From positions 128,001 through 192,000 of the forward strand of contig CAWECG010000001.1 in NCBI GenBank assembly GCA_963807605.1: a stretch of DNA of 64,000 nt. Reading direction: 5' to 3'. The notes beneath the pieces are model-generated. The model was not told where the DNA came from. It did no database searches and saw nothing but the letters and a program-made list of their open reading frames with translations. The position numbers were made by a program, and so were the translations under genes. This DNA is from Candidatus Bathyarchaeota archaeon (lineage in GTDB: Archaea > Thermoproteota > Bathyarchaeia > 40CM-2-53-6 > RBG-13-38-9). Shown piece by piece: positions 29,935 through 40,630 of this stretch; position 1 is the stretch's first letter, and every line of letters begins with the position of its first letter.

Positions 29935-31023
29935 GTGCTGGTCGAGATGCTCCGACGGTATAGTCCCAGCGGAGAAGAAAGAAATCTCGCAGAGTATCTC
30001 AGAAAGGAACTGGAAGGGAACAATTTCAACGTGCACCTAGATGATGCTGGAAATGTGATAGGCACACGAGGTAAGGGCCCTCCAACGCTGCTACTGTGTG
30101 GGCATATGGATACAGTTCCCGGAAAGCTGGAGGTTAGAGTCGAAGGAGACGTTATTTACGGGAGAGGCGCCGTCGACGCAAAAGCCCCGCTTGCGAGTAT
30201 GATCGTGGGTGCATCCAAGAGTGCTGAACAGATGGGCAAGATAATAGTGGCTTGTGCTGTGGACGAGGAAGGGCAAGGAAAGGGAATAAGGCAACTGATT
30301 AACGACGATGTTCAAGCAGACTATGCAATATTTGGAGAACCGAGCAGATCGTGGAATGTTACCATCGGCTACAAAGGAAGCCTACACCTATTGTTAGAAT
30401 GCACCGGTGAGACTGGCCATTCATCAGCACCTTGGCTCTTCGACAACGCGATCGAGAAGACCTACAAATTTTGGGAAGCGATGAAGGGGTATCGCTTCGA
30501 AGAGGAGAAGGCCGAAAGCCGCTTCTACTCAGTGACTTGGTGCTTGACCAGATTGAATGGGGGAGGCTCCTCGAGTGTGATTCCGTCACGATGCGAGGCA
30601 GAGATAGATATTCGCACTCCTCCACAAATCCCACCTGAGGTCGTATTAAGCAGGCTTGAGGGACTCCTCGAGGAATTCAGCAAGACCAACCCAAAGACGA
30701 AACTGAAGTTGAACTCTATGGGTACCGTTCAAGCATACGAGTCTGACTCCAGATCTCTACTCGTCAGGGCCCTAACCTACGCCATCAGAAAGATCTTTCA
30801 ACAATCACCAACACTTCTGAGGAAGACGGGCACGGGCGATATGAATGAACTGGGATCTACATTGAAGATACCGATGGTATCGTACGGACCCGGTGACTCA
30901 CATCTTGACCACACATCCGACGAGCATATCTCGATATCAGAGTACCTATCGAGCATCAAGGTCTACCAAGAAGCCATTTCCAGACTATTCGACCTACATA
31001 GATCCCGAGAACGAGGTGACTGA
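29935..31023 (+). CDS. lysK: LysW-lysine/ornithine hydrolase (M20)
   Basis: [35 protein letters not shown]. Confidence 0.94.
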
Positions 31024-32419
31024 GCTGAGCAGCAGAAAGATCACTCACGATGTTCTACTTCTCGATACAACCTTGAGGGAAGGAGAACAGACTCCGGGAG
31101 TCACTTTCACAATAGAAGAGAAACTCGAAATAGCCAAGAAACTGGACGAAATAGGCATCGATATGATCGAGGCTGGAGACCCCAATGTCTCAAGCGATGT
31201 CAAGGAAGCCATCCGAAGGATTGCGAAGGAGGGGCTGAAAGCCGAGATACTTGCTCACTGCAGGGCCTTGATCCCCGACGTAGAGAACGCTGCCTCATGC
31301 GAGGTCGATAGAATCGCAATATTCCTAGGTACTTCAAAGTCTCACCTCCAATACAAGCTGAAGAAAGATGAAGACAAGGCGATCGAATTAGTCTCAAAGG
31401 CGATAGAACATGCCAAGGACCAAGGATTGAAGGTCAGGTTCACTGCTGAGGACGCATCGAGGACTGACCGCGGTTTTCTTTTGAGAATCTGCAGGGAAGC
31501 ACAGGATACTGGGGCAGATAGGATAAGCATCCCCGACACAGTTGGAATAATGATGCCAGATGCTGTCCGTGAACTATTTCAGGATCTCAGTCATGAACTC
31601 AAAGCCCAACTGGACACACATTGCCACAACGACCTCGGCCTTGCTACCGCCAATACCTTGGCAGGACTTGAGGGAGGGGCTACCGCAGCTCATGTCACTA
31701 TCAACGGCCTAGGGGAGAGGAGCGGAATAGCGCCACTTAGCGAAGTCGCGGTTGCCCTGAAAGTGCATTATGGAATCGAGACTGTTAAGCTCGAATCTCT
31801 ACCTGCATTATCGCTTTTGATTGAACGGTTTAGCGGTATTGTCCCCGCGCCAAACACGCCTATAATTGGAGAGAACGCCTTCACCCACAAGGCAGGCATT
31901 CATGTCGCAGGTGTCTTGGCTAATCCGTCAACTTACGAGGGTTTTCCGCCAGACTTGATCGGTAGACAAAGGGACATAATCATAGACAAGTATACGGGGA
32001 TTCATGCAGTCAGATCGAGGCTCGAGAGATTGGGTGTCTCTCTCAACGAGAATCAACTTACGAGCGTCGTCCAAGCCATAAAAGAGAGACCGACCATCAG
32101 CAGATTTAGAGACGCAGATATAATTGAGTTAGCCGAGCGAGTGACTGGTAAAACCCTCAAGGCTCAGGTTCCCAGCAAAGTGGAAGCTCTCTTGAGAGTA
32201 AAGTGTGAATCAAACGTTTACACAACGGCGATAGCTAGGAAAATCCGGGCTCTCAAGAAAGTAACCAAGGTGTACGAGGTAACTGGAAATTACGACATCG
32301 AAGCTACTATAACCGCCGATTCTACCTTCGACCTGAATGAAATCCTGGAGAGGATAAGAGAGATTGAGGGTGTCGAAGCAACCGAGACTCAACTGGTTTT
32401 GAAAAAGTTTGAGACATAG
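31016..32419 (+). CDS. Homocitrate synthase with C-terminal RAM (Lrp-type) domain
   Basis: DTTLREGEQ, HCHNDLG, FTHKAGIH; tail EVTGNYDI..EIEGVEATETQLVL; last gene of the lys operon. Confidence 0.85.
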   Translation: MTELSSRKITHDVLLLDTTLREGEQTPGVTFTIEEKLEIAKKLDEIGIDMIEAGDPNVSSDVKEAIRRIAKEGLKAEILAHCRALIPDVENAASCEVDRIAIFLGTSKSHLQYKLKKDEDKAIELVSKAIEHAKDQGLKVRFTAEDASRTDRGFLLRICREAQDTGADRISIPDTVGIMMPDAVRELFQDLSHELKAQLDTHCHNDLGLATANTLAGLEGGATAAHVTINGLGERSGIAPLSEVAVALKVHYGIETVKLESLPALSLLIERFSGIVPAPNTPIIGENAFTHKAGIHVAGVLANPSTYEGFPPDLIGRQRDIIIDKYTGIHAVRSRLERLGVSLNENQLTSVVQAIKERPTISRFRDADIIELAERVTGKTLKAQVPSKVEALLRVKCESNVYTTAIARKIRALKKVTKVYEVTGNYDIEATITADSTFDLNEILERIREIEGVEATETQLVLKKFET

Positions 32420-32490
32420 ACTTTCACCAATAAACTTATAGGCAAATGAAAAGATTTTATGCAAGAAACCGGGCGATGAGTGAAGGCGAG

Positions 32491-32574
32491 ATGTTACCAG
32501 TGGCATATCCAAGACTCCCCCATTGCTTGAAGTTGATAGCGCTGCTCATCGTCGTTTTAGTACTTCTAGTGTAG
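32491..32574 (+). CDS. Leu/Ile/Val-rich leader peptide (27 aa) upstream of ilvB
   Basis: MLPVAYPRLPHCLKLIALLIVVLVLLV*; 13 of the last 15 codons are Leu/Ile/Val; ends 67 nt before ilvB. Confidence 0.75.
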   Translation: MLPVAYPRLPHCLKLIALLIVVLVLLV

Positions 32575-32636
32575 CCTGAGCAGCGAACTCTCTGTTATTG
32601 CTGCGCGGGTCGTATAAAACAACAGTAGAGATGATA
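32540..32636 (+). promoter_or_regulatory. Putative attenuator with alternative RNA helices
   Basis: CGCTGCTCA/TGAGCAGCG versus CCTGAGCAGCGA/TTGCTGCGCGGG versus CTCTCTGTT/AACAGTAGAG, the last overlapping the ilvB RBS region. Confidence 0.65.
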
Positions 32637-32641
32637 AAAAT

Positions 32642-34321
32642 TTGGTGAAATTAACCGGCGCCAAGGCGCTGGTGGAATCGCTGGAAAGAGAGAAAGTACA
32701 GACTATGTTCGGCATACCAGGTGGGCAGATAATGCCTGTCTACGACGTACTACTGGACTCTAAGATCAGACACATACTCGCAAGACACGAACAATCGGCA
32801 GCCCACATGGCAGATGGGTATGCAAGGGCTGGCGGAAGAACCGGAGTCTGTATGGCAACCTCTGGTCCTGGGGCCACGAATTTGGTGACTGGATTAGCTA
32901 CTGCACACTTAGACTCATCACCAATAGTGGCTGTGACAGGCCAAGTTCCCACCCCACAGATAGGTCTTGATGCTTTCCAAGAGGCGGATATAATAGGCAT
33001 AGGAAGTCCAGTTACCAAATACAGCTTCCAACCGCGTAAGGCTGAGGAGATACCATTAGCCGTTAAGCAAGCCTTCTTCATAGCCCAGACAGGAAGAAAA
33101 GGTCCCGTCCTAATAGATCTACCCAGAGATGTTCAATTAGAGTCGGCTGAAATGGAATTTCCAGATAGGGTTGAGATTAGAGGATACAGAACAGTCTACA
33201 AGCCAGACCCAGAGAAAATAGGCCGAGCGGCAGAGATGTTGGTCAGAGCTGAGAGGCCGCTTATACTAGCAGGCGGAGGAGTAAGTCTAGCAAATGCTTC
33301 TAGCGGGTTACAAAAACTATCTGAATTACTCTTGGCACCGGTCGCTACCTCATTAATGGGTAAAGGTACTTTCCCAGAAGATCATCCTCTTTCCATAGGC
33401 ACCATAGGAATGCACGGTACAAGAGAAGCTAACCAGTTGATCTACGAAACTGACATCCTATTAGCTATCGGTTGCCGATTCAGTGACAGAACAACTGGAA
33501 AGGTGGATGAGTTCTGCCCAACCTCACACGTCATACATATAGACATCGATCCCACGGAGATTGGAAAGAACAAGTGTGTGAATCTCGCAATAGTAAGTGA
33601 TGCAGGCATGGCACTCGAAGAACTCTGCAGCGCATTGCGTAGGAAAATAGAATCGAGAAAGGACACCCCTTGGTCGAGGAAAGTTAAGGAAGTCAAAGAA
33701 TCCTTCGCAAACAAGATAGAAAACTCTGGCAAAGAGTTGACTCCCCCAAAGATCCTAAAAGAACTTCGTAGATTGTTGCCATTGCAGTCAATAGTCACGA
33801 CTGAAGTAGGTCAGAATCAAATGTGGGCTTCACTATACTTTAAGGCTCTGCAGCCACGCACTTTCATCACTTCAGGCGGATTTGGATGTATGGGATACGG
33901 TTTTCCCGCCTCTCTGGGTGCGAAAGTCGCCAAGCCTGACGTGCCAGTCCTGGACATAGCTGGAGACGGAAGCTTCCAGATGACAGAAAACTCTCTGGCA
34001 ACGTCGATATCTGAGAAGATACCCGTCACAGTCTTGATACTCAATAACAGGATGTTGGGAATGGTTGCACAGTGGCAGAGGCTGTTCTACAACCGGAGAT
34101 ACTCCGCCGTTCAGTTAGGTAAAGTTCCAGACTTTGCGAGACTCGCCGAGGCCTACGGAGCTGAGGGAATACGCGTCGGCTCGATCAAGGAAATGTCGGA
34201 AGCAGTCAAGAAATCCTTACGAAGCGATGTTACAACAGTCATAGACGTCCCAATCGATCCCGAAGAAAACGTATTGCCAATGGTGCCTGGAGGATACGGC
34301 CTGAAAGATGTCATAGGGTGA
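32642..34321 (+). CDS. ilvB: Acetolactate synthase large subunit
   Basis: RHEQSAAHMADGYAR, TSGPGATN, GDGSFQM, LGMVAQWQ. Confidence 0.97.
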   Translation: MVKLTGAKALVESLEREKVQTMFGIPGGQIMPVYDVLLDSKIRHILARHEQSAAHMADGYARAGGRTGVCMATSGPGATNLVTGLATAHLDSSPIVAVTGQVPTPQIGLDAFQEADIIGIGSPVTKYSFQPRKAEEIPLAVKQAFFIAQTGRKGPVLIDLPRDVQLESAEMEFPDRVEIRGYRTVYKPDPEKIGRAAEMLVRAERPLILAGGGVSLANASSGLQKLSELLLAPVATSLMGKGTFPEDHPLSIGTIGMHGTREANQLIYETDILLAIGCRFSDRTTGKVDEFCPTSHVIHIDIDPTEIGKNKCVNLAIVSDAGMALEELCSALRRKIESRKDTPWSRKVKEVKESFANKIENSGKELTPPKILKELRRLLPLQSIVTTEVGQNQMWASLYFKALQPRTFITSGGFGCMGYGFPASLGAKVAKPDVPVLDIAGDGSFQMTENSLATSISEKIPVTVLILNNRMLGMVAQWQRLFYNRRYSAVQLGKVPDFARLAEAYGAEGIRVGSIKEMSEAVKKSLRSDVTTVIDVPIDPEENVLPMVPGGYGLKDVIG

Positions 34322-34323
34322 AA

Positions 34324-34834
34324 ATGTTGACAAAGACATTTGTAATATCCGCATTGGTTGAACATAAACCAGGTGTTCTCTATAAGGTCTCGAACATGTT
34401 CTGGCGCCGCGGCTTCAACATTGAGAGCGTATCCATTGGAACTGCGGAGAAGGAAGACTTGGCTAGAATGACGATAACTATCAAGGGTGAGGAGAAAGAT
34501 GCCGAGCAGCTTGTCGGCCAGCTTGAGAAACTGATAGATGTCCTCAAAGCTCAACGGCTCGACCCGGAAAAAGCCGTTATGAGAGAGCTTGCCCTCATCA
34601 AACTCAGCGCCGTAGACCAAAAGAATCCGCTCGGACATCTTCCATTACGTCGAGGTATTTAGGGGAAGGATAGTTGATGTCTCCCCGGAGACGGCTACCG
34701 TCGAGATAGTTGGGAGTAAGGACAAGATAGACGCGTTCATCAATCTGACGCGCAACTTCGGGTTAGTGGAGGTTGCTAGGACCGGTGAGACTGCTCTTAT
34801 AAGGGGACCAGAATCTGTAAGGATAAGCGAATAA
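34324..34834 (+). CDS. ilvN: Acetolactate synthase small subunit, +1 frameshift near 34624
   Basis: KPGVL..RRGFNIES; shifted frame RSDIFHYVEVFRGRIVDV..EVARTG. Confidence 0.93.
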
Positions 34835-34847
34835 GGTGATTTAGAGT

Positions 34848-35852
34848 ATGGCAAAAGTATTTCACGACAAAGATGCAGACCTAAAGTATCTTGAAGGAAA
34901 GACCATAGCCGTTATCGGCTACGGTAACCAAGGGCACGCTCAAGCCCTGACATTCAGAGACTCGGGCATCAACGTAGTAGTAGGCTTAAGACCTGGAGGA
35001 AAATCCTGGAAATTGGCGGAGCAGGAAGGGTTCAAACCTCTAACAGTGGACGAGGCAGCGAAGAAGGCGGACATCATACACATGCTGTTTCCAGACCTTG
35101 AACAGCCGGCAGTCTACAAGAAATCCATCGAACCGAACCTCAAAGCCGGCAAGACAATCAGCTGCTCACACGCATACAATATACACTTCAAACAGATAAT
35201 CCCGCCAAAGAACGTAGACGTCATCATGGTGGCGCCGAAGAGCCCCGGCTCAAGACTCAGAGAGATCTACAAGCAAGGCTTCGGTGTACCTGCGCTAATA
35301 GCGGTCTACCAAGACGTCTCCGGCAAAGCGAAAGGGACAGTGCTTGCAATGGCCAAAGCTTTGGGCGCAACGAAGGCAGGAGTGATAGAGACGACATTCA
35401 AAGAAGAAGCCGAGACCGACATAATAGGCGAACAGATAGTCCTCGGAGGGGGATCAATGGAACTGATCAAGAAGGGCTTCGAAGTCCTCGTTGAGGCGGG
35501 CTATCAACCTGAACTCGCATACTTCGAGGTTGCTAATGAGCTGAAGCTCATGGTCGATCTTCTCTACGAAGGCGGGCTAACTAGGATGATGAAGATGATA
35601 TCCCACACGGCGCAGTACGGTAGCATGACCGTCGGTCCTCGAGTGATAGATGACCACGTGAAGGAGAACATGCGCAAGGTTGTAAAATTCGTTCAGAGCG
35701 GTGAATTCGCAAGAGAGTGGAGCGGTGACCCTCAGAAGAGCATGGAGAGACTGAACAAGCTGATGAAGGAGCTTGAGGAACACCCGGTAGAGAAGGTTGG
35801 GAAAACAATCAGACAGATGGCTGGAACCGAGAGAGGTGCCACTGCCTACTGA
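34848..35852 (+). CDS. ilvC: Ketol-acid reductoisomerase
   Basis: [34 protein letters not shown]. Confidence 0.97.
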
Positions 35853-35912
35853 CTGTGATCAATGAATTCCATACCTAGCATTCGAAAACCATGCGAAAAT
35901 CACTCTTTTTTT

Positions 35913-35940
35913 CCGAAAACTCTTTATTAGAGTACGATAT
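35913..35940 (+). promoter_or_regulatory. BRE/TATA promoter with GTACGATAT box (leuC/hacA)
   Basis: CCGAAAACTCTTTATTAGAGTACGATAT, same layout as 25774-25800. Confidence 0.55.
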
Positions 35941-35971
35941 GATGTTTAGGCAACATGGCAGGCTATGAAAA

Positions 35972-37234
35972 TTGAACATATTCGAAAAGATCCTCGCTAG
36001 GGCATCGGAAAGAAAGGAAGTAACCCCAGGGGAGATAGTCGAAGCAAACATCGATATGGCGATGATTCACGACCTAACCGGTCCTCTAACAGTGGACTCC
36101 TTCCGTAAGATTGGCGCCGAGAAAGTATGGGACCCAAAGAAGATAGTGGTAATTTTTGACCACTTGGTTCCTCCAAGCACCGTCAGGGCTGCTACCCTCC
36201 AAAAAGGAGTCAGAGAATTCGTGAGAGAACAAGGAATCAGAAGCTTCTACGATGTCGGCCAAGGAGGGGTCTGCCACCAAGTCTTTCATGAGAAGGGATA
36301 TGCAAGACCCGGTGAACTGGTCGTCGGTGCCGACTCACACACATGCACCTACGGAGCACTAGGAGCCTTAGCTACTGGAATAGGATCAACCGAGATGGCA
36401 GCAGTCTTTACAACAGGAAGAATGTGGTTCAAAGTGCCTAAAGTCATGAAGATCCATACTAGCGGAAAATTCGAGAAAAATGTTACCTCAAAGGATCTCA
36501 TACTAAGAATAATCGGAGATATTGGAGAGGGTGGAGCAATATACAAGGGAATGGAATTCACAGGTCCAACATTCACAAACATGAGCATTGATGGAAGATT
36601 AACAGTATGTAATATGGTGGTCGAGGCAGGAGCAAAAGCAGGCATAGTCCCGCCAGACAACAAAACCCTCACTTACGTCAGAGCAAGAACAAAGAAACCA
36701 TTCAAACCATTAAAAAGTGATAAAGACGAAGCTTATGAAGAGCAGCTAGAATACGATGTTTCAAAACTAGCTGCTCAAGTAGCCTGCCCCTCATCAGTTG
36801 ATAACGTCAAACCTGCATCTGAACTGTCTAACGTAAAAGTAGACCAAGTATTCATAGGATCATGCACAAACGGACGAATCGAAGATCTCAGGTTCGCTGC
36901 ATCAATCCTGAAGGGTAAAAACCTTCACCGCGATGTCCGAATGATCGTAAGCCCCTCATCCCAACAAGTATACAGCCAATGCCTCAAAGAGGGGCTGTTC
37001 CAAATATTCATGGAAGCTGGCGCAATAGTGACCAATGCAACGTGCGGGCCCTGTCTGGGTGGACATATGGGATTACTAGCTGCAGGAGAGGTCTGTATCA
37101 GTACCTCAAATCGTAATTTCATAGGCAGAATGGGAAGCCCTCAATCCTACGTTTACCTGGCTAATCCAGCTACAGCAGCAGCATCTGGAATAGCTGGATA
37201 CATAATCGATCCAAATGAATTGAGGAGGAGATGA
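35972..37234 (+). CDS. leuC: 3-isopropylmalate dehydratase / homoaconitase large subunit
   Basis: GADSHTCTYGA, GSCTNGRIEDL, CGPCLG, NRNFIGRMG; substrate not resolved. Confidence 0.9.
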   Translation: MNIFEKILARASERKEVTPGEIVEANIDMAMIHDLTGPLTVDSFRKIGAEKVWDPKKIVVIFDHLVPPSTVRAATLQKGVREFVREQGIRSFYDVGQGGVCHQVFHEKGYARPGELVVGADSHTCTYGALGALATGIGSTEMAAVFTTGRMWFKVPKVMKIHTSGKFEKNVTSKDLILRIIGDIGEGGAIYKGMEFTGPTFTNMSIDGRLTVCNMVVEAGAKAGIVPPDNKTLTYVRARTKKPFKPLKSDKDEAYEEQLEYDVSKLAAQVACPSSVDNVKPASELSNVKVDQVFIGSCTNGRIEDLRFAASILKGKNLHRDVRMIVSPSSQQVYSQCLKEGLFQIFMEAGAIVTNATCGPCLGGHMGLLAAGEVCISTSNRNFIGRMGSPQSYVYLANPATAAASGIAGYIIDPNELRRR

Positions 37235-37734
37235 AGTTGATCATTACTGCAAAAGCTGTAAAGTTTGGAAACAATATAAACACAGACGTAATCCTACCGG
37301 GTAAATATCTTGAATTGATCGATCCTAACGAACTAGGAAAACATGCATTGGAAGGACTTGATCCAACCTTCCCGCAGAGAGCAAAAGAAGGTGTAATAAT
37401 CGTAGGTGGCAAGAACTTCGGTTGCGGATCAAGCAGAGAACAAGCCCCAATAGCTCTAAAGGCGGCAGGAGTTAAATGTGTCCTCGCTGAGTCATTCGCA
37501 AGGATCTTCTATAGGAACGCGATAAACATAGGGCTGCCGGCCCTAGAATGCTCAGGCATCTCAGAAAAAACCAATGAAAGTGACTCGATCTCTATAAACT
37601 TGAAAGACGGAATTGTGGAAAACCACACTAAAGGAATCACCTTAAAGACCTCCCCTATGCCCGAGTTTATCATGAATCTATTAGAAGAAGGAGGCCTCAT
37701 CCCTCATACAAGAGGCCTGATCGGTAAAAAATGA
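37231..37734 (+). CDS. leuD: 3-isopropylmalate dehydratase / homoaconitase small subunit
   Basis: NINTDVILPG, NFGCGSSREQA, FARIFYRNAIN. Confidence 0.9.
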   Translation: MKLIITAKAVKFGNNINTDVILPGKYLELIDPNELGKHALEGLDPTFPQRAKEGVIIVGGKNFGCGSSREQAPIALKAAGVKCVLAESFARIFYRNAINIGLPALECSGISEKTNESDSISINLKDGIVENHTKGITLKTSPMPEFIMNLLEEGGLIPHTRGLIGKK

Positions 37735-37814
37735 GAGAACATAACATCGCACTTATACCTGGCGATGGTATTGGCCCAGAACAGACTGAAGCTGCACTGA
37801 AGGTTTTAGAAGCG
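37731..37814 (+). pseudogene. 5' remnant of the native isopropylmalate/isocitrate dehydrogenase-family gene
   Basis: MREHNIALIPGDGIGPEQTEAALKVLEA; ATGA overlap with leuD; ends at AGCGCGCGCT. Confidence 0.88.
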
Positions 37815-37860
37815 CGCGCTAAGAGTATAAGAGAAAAATGCTAAGGAGAAAAGAAGAACG

Positions 37861-38922
37861 ATGAGAAAGAAATATAATGTCGCAGTAATTGGCGGTGACG
37901 GTACAGGTCCGGAAGTGGTAGCAGAAGGATTAAAAGTCCTGAAAGCAGCTTCGAATGAATTTGGTTTTTCGTATGATACGACAATGTTTGATTTCGGTGG
38001 TGAGCGGTACCTGAAGACCGGAAAAACAATTACCGATGAAGAACTGGAAGGATTGAAAAAGTTTGATGCGATCTATCTTGGTGCAATCGGACATCCGGAT
38101 GTAAAACCGGGAATTCTGGAGCAAGGAATTCTTCTCAAGATACGATTTGCGCTCGATCAGTATATTAATTTACGTCCGGTGAAACTCTATAATGAAGCCT
38201 TTTGTCCCTTAAAGGATAAGAAACCGGAAGATGTTGATTTCGTCGTTGTGCGTGAAAATTCCGAAGGCCTCTACAAAGGACTCGGCAGTTTTGAAAATAA
38301 AGGGACAAAAAATGAAGTAGCAATTCAAATATCGCACAATACACGGAAAGGCGTTGAACGCTGTATTCGCTATGCGTTTGAATACTGCAAGAAACGCAAC
38401 AGCAAGAAAAAGAAACTCACGCTCTGCGGAAAAACGAATGTCCTGACATATGCATGGGATCTCTGGCAGCGAACATTTGATGAAGTGAAAAAAGAATATC
38501 CAGACATTCAAACCGAGTATGTGAATGTTGATGCAACAACCATGTGGTTTGTAAAAAATCCAGAATGGTTTGATGTGATTGTTACTGATAATTTATTCGG
38601 TGATATTATCACTGATCTTGGAGCGATGGTGCAAGGCGGTATGGGTATCGCCGCGGGTGGCAATATTAATCCGGAAGGCGTTTCTATGTTTGAACCGATC
38701 GGCGGATCTGCACCAAAGTATACCGGGAAACATGTTATTAATCCGCTTGCAGGGATTTGCGCCCTTGGGATGCTTCTGGAAAATATCGGTGAAGAAAAAG
38801 CCGGCAAAGGCGTTGAGAATACAGTGATTCGTCTTGTTCAGACTAAGATAAGAAGCCTTTCAGCAGGAAAGATGGGGTATACCACCGAAGAAGTCGGCGA
38901 TATGGTTGCAGGCGGGTTATAA
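37861..38922 (+). CDS. leuB: 3-isopropylmalate dehydrogenase, apparently of foreign (bacterial-like) origin
   Basis: [50 protein letters not shown]; codon usage (ATT, TTT, GAA, CCG) unlike neighbours; AAGGAG upstream. Confidence 0.92.
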
Positions 38923-38942: not shown

Positions 38943-39101
38943 GAAAAGGAAGACGACACGAAGTGGACGAATGCAGCTAACGCAATTGAGGAAGCCTTCG
39001 TCAACAATCTAGAACAAGGCGTCTACACACCTGATCTTGGAGGGAAGAGTAGAACAGCGGAAGTTGGAAAAGCAATAGCACAACAAATAATCGAGGGATA
39101 A
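38943..39101 (+). pseudogene. 3' remnant of the native isopropylmalate/isocitrate dehydrogenase-family gene
   Basis: EKEDDTKWTNAANAIEEAFVNNLEQGVYTPDLGGKSRTAEVGKAIAQQIIEG*; stop lies 2 nt before the leuA ATG. Confidence 0.88.
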
Positions 39102-39103
39102 GA

Positions 39104-40630
39104 ATGCAGCAGGAGAAGGATAGAGTCTGGATATTTGATACTACTCTAAGGGACGGCGAACAGACTCCCGGGGTATCCCTCACACCAGAGGAGAAGCTAG
39201 AGATAGCTATGAAGCTGGACGAGCTTGGCGTCGACACTATAGAGGCGGGTTTCCCAAGAGTATCACGAGGGGAAGTTGAAGCTACTAAGCTCATTTTGAA
39301 ACAAGGTCTGAAGGCCAAAGTCTGCGGACTCGCACGGACTGACCAGAAGGACATCGATGCCGCTCTCGAATGTGGAGTCCCCTACATACACGTATTCATA
39401 GCAACCTCAGAGATCCACATGAAACACAAACTGCAAATGAATAAACAACAGGTTCTAGAGGCTGCAACAAAATGGGTAGGTTACGCGAAGGATCACGGTG
39501 TGATTGTAGAATTCTCACCTGAAGACGCGACTAGAACCGAGCCCGACTTCCTCAAACAGGTCCTTAAGGTCGCTGAAGAGGCTGGAGCCGACATAATAAA
39601 CGTTCCAGACACCGTCAGCGCCGCAACACCTGAGAGGATGTTCGAGATCATAAAAGAATGCGTATCCACGGTAGCCATACCGATCAGCGTTCACTGCCAC
39701 AATGATTTCGGCTTGGCTGTAGCAAACTCACTCGCCGGAATCAGAGCAGGAGCATCGCAAGCCCATGTAACAATAAATGGGCTGGGCGAAAGAGCAGGTA
39801 ACGCCTCTCTTGAAGAGTTTGTAATGTCCCTCCATCTGCTAGAGAATAAGAAGACAAGCATCAACACCAAGCTCATCTACGAGACCTCAAGACTGGTATC
39901 CGGGCTTACAGGCGTACTTATACAGCCGAACAAGGCTATAGTTGGAGAGAATGCCTTCGGTCATGAATCCGGGATCCATACACATGGAATGCTGAAAAGT
40001 CCCTTAACATATGAACCGATCACCCCTGAGCTTGTTGGAAGAAAGAGATGGTTCCAAGCCGGAAAACATGCCGGAGGACACGGCCTTGCCGCCAAGCTTG
40101 AGGAGGACGGCCTTCATCCAACTGAAGAACAGATGAAAGAGATAACCCGTCGAGTCAAGGATATCGGCGACAGGGGAAAGATGGTGGCCGATGCAGACCT
40201 ATTCGCAATCGCCAAAGCAGTTATCGGCGGAGTTTCGGAAGAGAAGAAGATCGTTGAGTTAGAGAATCTCACAGTTGTAACAGGAACAGGCGTGGTCCCA
40301 ACATCATCGGTCAAGCTACTTATTGACGGAAAAGAGTACATATCCTCGGAGACCGGCGTTGGGCCGGTCGACGCTGCCATCAAGGCTATCCACAAGATAG
40401 TTGGTCCGCTGGCGGACGTGAGATTGAAGGAGTATCGACTGGAAGCCACAACTGGTGGGTCCGACGCTTTAGCCGAAGTCCTCATAAAGATAGAGGATAG
40501 CGCAGGCAACATTGTGTCGGCCAGAGCAGCCAGAACAGATGTGGTGACTGCAAGCGTAGAAGCAGTGATAGAAGGAATCAACAGGACACTAATCAAGAGC
40601 CGCATCAAGAGTTCCGAAGACCGGCGCTGA
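39104..40630 (+). CDS. leuA: 2-isopropylmalate (or citramalate) synthase
   Basis: [35 protein letters not shown] regulatory domain. Confidence 0.9.

Follow-up and report, generated by a model that had tools for sequence, protein, structure and literature searches.

Leader-peptide control of amino-acid operons is a textbook bacterial mechanism that needs coupled transcription and translation, and in Escherichia coli ivbL, ilvL and leuL are the leader-peptide attenuators of the branched-chain operons. Archaeal amino-acid genes are controlled by Lrp-type and similar proteins. The ilvBNC operon of Corynebacterium glutamicum carries a leader-peptide attenuator with three hairpins (PMC11857589). 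Our literature search found leader-peptide attenuation of ilv operons in bacteria only, and no paper on an archaeal leader-peptide sensor; archaeal Ribo-seq papers only call some upstream open reading frames (uORFs) "reminiscent" of such genes (PMC10117724). Here we analyse a uORF rich in Leu, Ile and Val (L/I/V) codons that lies directly before ilvB, ilvN and ilvC in a stretch of 64,000 nt (hereafter the window) from Candidatus Bathyarchaeota archaeon (contig CAWECG010000001.1, positions 128,001 to 192,000). Loci and families are referred to by working numbers where they must be told apart, the locus of the window being L001.

A Leu/Ile/Val leader before ilvB

An earlier note on this stretch, made from the sequence alone, had read a leader peptide for branched-chain amino acids directly before ilvBNC, and the ORF is present where it was placed, with the translation MLPVAYPRLPHCLKLIALLIVVLVLLV (Table 1). 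This L/I/V uORF is genuine and goes well beyond what chance would produce. Crude gene calling in this genome (2.65 Mb in 5 contigs) gave about 2577 genes, and in their upstream regions only two frames have at least 10 L/I/V codons among their last 12, and the leader is the sole one of the two that is followed by a strong hairpin. The other frame (MPCQVASTLTRSIILLLILV, G000 C1, about 328000) was rejected as a branched-chain leader, given that it precedes ORFs without a Pfam family and has no strong hairpin after it. A composition scan of the same genome for leaders specific for other amino acids gave noise only.

To follow the element among relatives, ilvB was searched in the GTDB family (16 genomes) and order (105 genomes) of the window, and the DNA upstream was then read. 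The uORF, whose absence from relatives the earlier note had named as grounds for dropping the idea, was found in 45 of the 47 ilvB loci of the order that are informative, reaching to relatives with as little as 58% identity in ilvB. The two informative loci that do not have it are L015 and the divergent L030, and one more locus (L021) is cut by a contig end. Its position is also conserved: in the 45 loci the stop codon of the uORF lies 54-77 nt before the point aligned to GTG 32645 of the window, and ilvB itself begins 3 nt upstream of this point in most cases and 6-9 nt upstream in some. The last 12 codons hold on average 9.5 L/I/V codons in frame versus 1.9 and 1.5 in the other two frames, and the L/I/V run corresponds to the last 9-13 codons of the conserved uORF.

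Among ilvB loci from other lineages such a frame was detected in 5 of 77, all five archaeal, and among the other Bathyarchaeia orders in only 1 of 40 loci. The latter (L155, family f12) has a uORF with an L/I/V tail ending in LLRLVPDVVVLIL and a stop codon 40 nt before ilvB. In Archaeoglobi a Val/Ile/Leu-rich uORF precedes ilvB in all 30 loci (L170-L199); it typically ends in VVVC, VVVH or VVLL, and its stop lies 16-40 nt before the ATG of ilvB (median 26 nt). The spacer between this uORF and ilvB contains a run of T4 or longer in 28 of the 30 loci and of T5 or longer in 12. All 30 share one layout in the 140 nt before ilvB, consisting of a TATA box, a short ORF whose V/I/L codon end is rich in GTA-GTA-GTA, and mostly a T4-T6 run before ilvB. 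Several of the sampled Archaeoglobi genomes are single contigs, which makes it probable that culturable species are among them. A similar picture was seen in single loci of DHVE2, Methanomassiliicoccales and Thermoplasmata. In one locus of the DHVE2 group (L043) and one of Archaeoglobus sp. (L072), a hairpin and a run of T6 or longer come after the L/I/V uORF, an arrangement that resembles a classical terminator and differs from that of the order of the window.

Candidate expression signals precede the leader. The TATA-like sequence that had been pointed out near 32432 is present (AAACTTATA, 32432-32440) within a promoter motif conserved in family relatives, and the usual TATA spacing of about 25 nt would put the transcript start near 32460. 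Two further in-frame ATG codons lie upstream of the proposed leader start, at 32476, an alternative start, and at 32446. In four related loci (L008-L011), box A, the conserved sequence preceding the leader, reads GACGAGTGA, without an ATG, and an ATG follows 6-7 nt later, which argues that box A is the Shine-Dalgarno sequence of the leader and that ATG 32491, the start chosen in the earlier note, is the right one.

Two conserved helices, P1 and P2

The folding energy of the whole leader is not unusual when compared with shuffled sequences (z +0.39); the structure is therefore local, and the evidence for it is comparative and does not come from the single sequence. When an unbiased alignment of ten family members was submitted to RNAalifold, exactly two helices were predicted, P1 and P2.

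Helix P1, which is absent from the earlier note, pairs the leader's own ribosome binding site (RBS) with the first control codons. Of its cells in the family alignment, 96.9% are paired, and a double compensatory change (GAUGAG:CUCAUC to GACGAG:CUCGUC, U-A to C-G) occurs in three sequences. Other families form the helix from other sequences, as with GUCUACGAGUGCG and CGCUUGUAGAC in f2 or GAUGGGGCU and AGCCCCAUC in f8, and in f2 the pairing forces residues other than L/I/V into the leader peptide. A local-helix scan of the 45 loci gave a median of -15.2 kcal/mol and a mean z of -2.9, with z below -2 in 28 loci. The median position of the 3' strand of P1 across the order is -28 to -15 nt relative to the stop codon. 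A ribosome with a footprint of about -15 to +11 nt around its A site would thus cover this strand at all A-site positions from the stop back to about 13 codons before it, a range that matches, by this geometry, exactly the L/I/V run.

Helix P2 is the hairpin that the earlier note had designated 2:3. Five of its pairs show double compensatory changes in the family alignment, and per-locus folds recovered it in all 45 loci (mean z -3.4, median energy -17.4 kcal/mol) from sequences that are entirely different between families. The family f2 alignment is too gappy, and RNAalifold missed even P2 in it, so the cross-family evidence is that of per-locus folding. In the window, the stretch from the stop codon to the Shine-Dalgarno sequence, which holds P2, folds with -18.1 kcal/mol (z -2.4). 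The hairpin is anchored to the end of the leader: its first paired base falls between -3 and +2 nt relative to the stop codon's end, and in 36 of the 45 loci the stem includes the stop. From its 3' end to the start of ilvB there are 16-37 nt (median 29), which is about the plain stop-to-start distance in Archaeoglobi; with P2 folded, the ilvB start region is consequently as near to the stop codon as it is there (medians of 29 and 26 nt).

We considered whether P2 might be a generic feature of gene ends and rejected this, as such a hairpin occurs at only 3-4% of ordinary gene ends of this genome. Runs of T5 or longer are found at fewer than 10% of gene ends genome-wide, and with both T-runs and hairpins so scarce the termination signals of this lineage are not obvious.

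If P2 were an intrinsic terminator, the leader would be a classical transcription attenuator, an explanation that we regard as improbable. A stable hairpin does follow the leader ORF in every locus, and the T-tracts after the stop in Archaeoglobi, like the hairpin plus T-run of the single DHVE2 and Archaeoglobus loci mentioned above, count in its favour. In the order of the window, however, T5 or longer is present between the uORF and ilvB in only 3 of the 45 loci, and no terminator-like site was found at the locus itself, in agreement with the statement of the earlier note that no U-tract terminator follows the leader. Moreover, there is no conserved antiterminator; from the footprint geometry, P2 would without one form both with a lagging and with a departed ribosome, giving either no regulation or regulation of the wrong sign.

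The same comparative data bear on another alternative, in which the ORF would have no part in ilvB regulation and its product would be a small hydrophobic membrane peptide acting in its own right. The C-terminus is indeed very hydrophobic, but the hydrophobic run has only 9-15 residues, too few for a membrane span, consists almost solely of Leu, Ile and Val, the products of the downstream pathway, and continues right into the stop codon; conservation does not extend to the N-terminal half. The ORF keeps a fixed position with respect to ilvB and P2, RNA pairing determines parts of the peptide sequence, and the same design arose before ilvB in distant archaea, all of which makes a free-standing membrane peptide very improbable indeed.

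Table 1. Features of the ilvB leader region and the operon that follows it (coordinates of the window)
Feature	Coordinates	Strand	Remarks
Predicted archaeal promoter (B recognition element (BRE)/TATA, ACCAATAAACTTATAGG)	32426..32442	+	Motif ACCAATA(A/G)(A/C)CTTATAGG conserved in sequence and position among family relatives
P1 5' strand, box A (GGCGATGAGTG)	32472..32482	+	Overlaps Shine-Dalgarno-like GAGTGA of the uORF; pairs with 32544-32553
Leader ORF, 27 codons and TAG	32491..32574	+	ATG 32491, TAG 32572-32574; kept in 45/47 loci of the order
Control codons (LKLIALLIVVLVLLV)	32527..32571	+	13/15 are Leu, Ile or Val
P1 3' strand (GCTCATCGTC)	32544..32553	+	Inside the control codons; pairs with box A, 32472-32482
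P2 hairpin	32574..32610	+	32575-86 pairs with 32598-32609; foot on the stop codon
Shine-Dalgarno of ilvB (GAGATGAT)	32628..32635	+	One mismatch to the 16S rRNA 3' end of this genome (GGATCACCTCCT); GATGAT unchanged throughout the family alignment
ilvB, acetolactate synthase large subunit	32642..34321	+	Pfam TPP_enzyme N, M and C domains; TTG start
ilvN, ilvC, leuC, leuD, leuB	34318..38922	+	Pfam matches; downstream of ilvB, same strand

Possible routes from ribosome dwell time to ilvB expression

Taken as a sensor, the leader very probably allows the ribosome to monitor charged Leu, Ile and Val tRNA by the time it dwells on the L/I/V codons. When one of these charged tRNAs is scarce, the ribosome would linger in the L/I/V run with its footprint over the 3' strand of P1; P1 could then not close, the RBS of the leader would stay open, and the leader would become loaded with ribosomes up to the foot of P2. 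With a good supply, the ribosome would finish and depart, P1 and P2 would close, and the leader would be left shut and bare. As P1 would close once the control codons are vacated, slow decoding would raise the ribosome load on the leader.

How this load might be converted into expression of ilvB was approached from several sides, beginning with the switch proposed in the earlier note. There, a segment within the control codons (1) pairs with the 5' arm of P2 (2) in competition with the 2:3 hairpin; stalling favours 2:3, which holds a 9-mer in its loop, and the 9-mer, when freed, blocks the RBS of ilvB. All of these pairings exist in the window: CGCTGCTCA (32540-48) is a perfect complement of TGAGCAGCG (32577-85) over 9 bp, and CTCTCTGTT (32588-96) can pair, with one bulge, with AACAGTAGAG (32621-30), which adjoins GAGATGAT. 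The 1:2 pairing is far stronger here than in synonymous recodings (-17.5 kcal/mol, z -3.4), a similar pairing (GGGCTCA with TGAGCCC) is present in family f7, and the opening energy predicted for the ilvB start region of the window is 7.1 kcal/mol with a ribosome at the stop versus 3.8 kcal/mol with one stalled at codon -5. Nevertheless, the 1:2 pairing is missing in most relatives and falls to -2.2 kcal/mol within the same genus; over the order its mean z is +0.44, the codon choice of most relatives being on the avoiding side, and outside L001 it is confined to f7. It was therefore rejected as a conserved antiterminator. The pairing of the 9-mer with the RBS is not above chance (p = 0.11 in the window; mean z -0.15 over the 45 loci, with p <= 0.05 in 7 of them) and only 56% of its cells are paired in the family alignment, for which reason it was also set aside as a pseudoknot; in addition, a hairpin loop is still able to pair, so that its position in the loop does not trap the 9-mer. 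The 2:3 hairpin is thus the only conserved part of that scheme, and a stalling-driven 1:2/2:3 switch is unlikely as the mechanism even at this locus and is not borne out as a general one.

Two further ideas on the start of ilvB were discarded. The gene starts at TTG 32642 here and at an ATG in the same position in relatives, and in a crude genome-wide count of starts led by a Shine-Dalgarno sequence TTG is about as frequent as ATG, each making up about 40%; the proposal of a deliberately weak initiation at TTG was dropped on this count. A +1/-1 frameshift fusing the leader to ilvB was also rejected, since the ilvB frame is open for only 9 codons upstream in the window and the length of this opening varies among relatives.

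We tentatively favour a post-transcriptional output, that is, translational attenuation with a modest unmasking of the ilvB start, while considering it to fall somewhat short of probable and to be the least certain step of the model. The ribosome would cover the U-rich control codons, which could otherwise pair with the purine-rich start region of ilvB across the P2 clamp, and ribosomes ending at the foot of P2 would be delivered next to this start region, with no intrinsic terminator involved. Consistent with such an output, the ilvB Shine-Dalgarno sequence pairs most often with the U-rich L/I/V tract in modelled ribosome-free ensembles. When a footprint positioned at codons -4 to -8 was masked, opening the start region was predicted to cost about 1 kcal/mol less (Wilcoxon p 0.001-0.004, values that overstate the evidence as the loci are related), with all 8 family means positive, and masking at codon -10 had no effect.

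Several observations count against translational attenuation, besides the relatedness of the loci. The predicted unmasking is small, and it all but vanishes in f7 and in the family of the window (0.1 kcal/mol in the latter); synonymous recoding gave no sign that codons are selected to pair with the start region of ilvB (mean z about 0), and RNAalifold predicted no helix with the ilvB Shine-Dalgarno sequence in the family alignment. A leader RBS that shuts itself after one pass fits a one-shot co-transcriptional decision equally well as continuous sensing by translation. It should also be kept in mind that we infer the transcript start, the translation of the uORF and the sign of the regulation from sequence.

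Codon choice within the leader is strongly biased. Among the control codons, Val is encoded by GTA in 51% of cases versus 21% genome-wide and Ile by ATT in 64% versus 27%, and codons ending in G are avoided (GTG 7% versus 20%, CTG 5% versus 19%); GTA is also the dominant Val codon in the Archaeoglobi leaders. By this choice the tract stays U-rich and G-poor and is kept from pairing with P2, and no selection for pairing with the 3' arm of P2 was found in the leaders. The bias could also stem from a preference for certain tRNAs; in this genome, where many tRNA genes carry introns, aragorn detected only 7 tRNAs.

The same sensor might instead act through a termination or cleavage factor, in a manner resembling the tna operon. 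The bare U-rich, G-poor tract between P1 and P2 would then be an entry site for aCPSF1/FttA or for a 5'-3' exonuclease, and a stalled ribosome would shield it, so that transcription continues or the mRNA survives. In archaea, aCPSF1/FttA terminates transcription at U-rich RNA and is a cause of polarity. Such an output has the correct sign of regulation without any alternative RNA structure, and it gives every part a role, P1 stopping reloading, P2 making the RNA beyond the ribosome double-stranded and the tract remaining unstructured. The avoidance of G-ending codons and of pairing with P2, and the lack of a conserved helix sequestering the ilvB Shine-Dalgarno sequence, would be explained as well. 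On the other hand, the factor site is not recognisable by sequence, the conserved short distance from P2 to ilvB is left without a role, and the tract is not the only single-stranded part, as the P1 loop and the A-rich spacer following P2 are so too. This output, the main rival to translational attenuation, accommodates the three conserved parts equally well; we regard it as possible, although rather unlikely.

Taking sensor and output together, we propose, as a possibility that we would not call probable, that archaea of several phyla sense Leu, Ile and Val by means of leader ORFs without terminators, and that in the order of the window the leader gates itself, its ribosome load switching ilvB on either by a shunt-like handover across the hairpin on the stop codon or by keeping a termination factor off the RNA. 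If true, this would be the first ribosome-mediated attenuation described in Archaea, with a new output mechanism in addition.

Genomic setting and comparison with described systems

The leader features all lie in a gap of 222 nt between ilvB and a synthase gene on the + strand (30893-32419) that is located directly 5' of the leader. This synthase has an HMGL-like/HCS_D2 core fused to a C-terminal Lrp/AsnC ligand-binding (RAM) domain and is homocitrate/isopropylmalate synthase-like. Upstream of it, on the same strand, Pfam matches identify a class-III aminotransferase and an M20 peptidase, which are lysJ- and lysK-like; given this position, the synthase is probably a feedback-sensing homocitrate synthase of the lysine pathway. 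On the other side of the operon, leuA, also on the + strand, begins at 39104, after the end of leuB at 38922. Between these two genes (38950-39103) another frame reads as the C-terminus of an isocitrate/isopropylmalate dehydrogenase, ending in VYTPDLGGKSRTAEVGKAIAQQIIEG; the Pfam model is already fully covered by leuB, and this extra dehydrogenase end may be a gene remnant. No Rfam family matched at gathering score anywhere in the window.

In other Bathyarchaeia orders (L134-L151, L161-L168 and L040), a different conserved element, with no L/I/V uORF, is present 90-150 nt upstream of ilvB. It occurs in two forms, ATGAGGGATCG(N5-7)CCTC, which reads as a tiny ORF M-R-D-R-[FYHV]-L, and ATGGGGTATYGYTTTATT (M-G-Y-[CR]-F-I), the element being followed in some genera by a long conserved stretch (CACCTCAATAGCTGGGATCGTCGGGTACCGACAG...). 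Its 5' part resembles box A of the window, and it may be a second, unrelated cis-regulator of ilvB.

The bacterial branched-chain attenuators are the obvious point of reference for the leader described here, as they share with it a short ORF rich in codons for the end products, set between promoter and ilvB and followed by stable RNA structure. Unlike in those systems, there is neither a hairpin-plus-U-tract terminator nor a conserved terminator/antiterminator pair at this locus, the control codons extend to the stop and the hairpin begins on the stop codon. The host differs too, the archaeal RNA polymerase ending transcription at oligo-T or with the help of a factor.

The ermC and cat leaders operate by translational attenuation. 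In mycobacteria, the control codons of polycysteine leaderless short ORFs join a duplex that hides the next RBS (bioRxiv 10.1101/834739). These short ORFs and the C. glutamicum ilvBNC attenuator are the nearest working analogues of the leader. As proposed here, a ribosome stalled in the short uORF would likewise alter mRNA pairing and raise translation of the next gene with no need of a terminator, and the leader has a predicted stall site, the L/I/V run, as translational attenuators do. In contrast to these examples, the conserved helices involve the leader's own RBS and stop codon, and no conserved duplex with the ilvB Shine-Dalgarno sequence was found.

The factor-dependent output has its counterpart in the tna operon of E. 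coli, where attenuation through TnaC is Rho-dependent and it is free tryptophan, by its action on the nascent peptide, that determines the stall. In both cases a ribosome held at the end of the leader would shield the RNA from a termination factor, so that stalling means ON. Here, in contrast, the stall would be set by tRNA charging and the factor would be aCPSF1/FttA; to our knowledge archaea have no Rho. The handover across P2, finally, recalls the 35S leader of cauliflower mosaic virus (CaMV), in which the end of a short ORF coincides with the foot of a stable hairpin, with the main start just beyond the hairpin. This likeness is one of layout only, as the ribosome shunt of plant pararetroviruses is a eukaryotic scanning mechanism that involves no amino-acid sensing.

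An L/I/V leader that is conserved and widespread before ilvB would establish sensing by the ribosome in both prokaryotic domains, and it offers a defined system for how a stalled archaeal ribosome affects gene expression without hairpin terminators, a question that is directly testable given that Archaeoglobus fulgidus is culturable. When set beside the described systems, the type of sensor is familiar and it is the domain and the architecture that differ, with no terminator, a self-gating leader and a hairpin placed on the stop codon.

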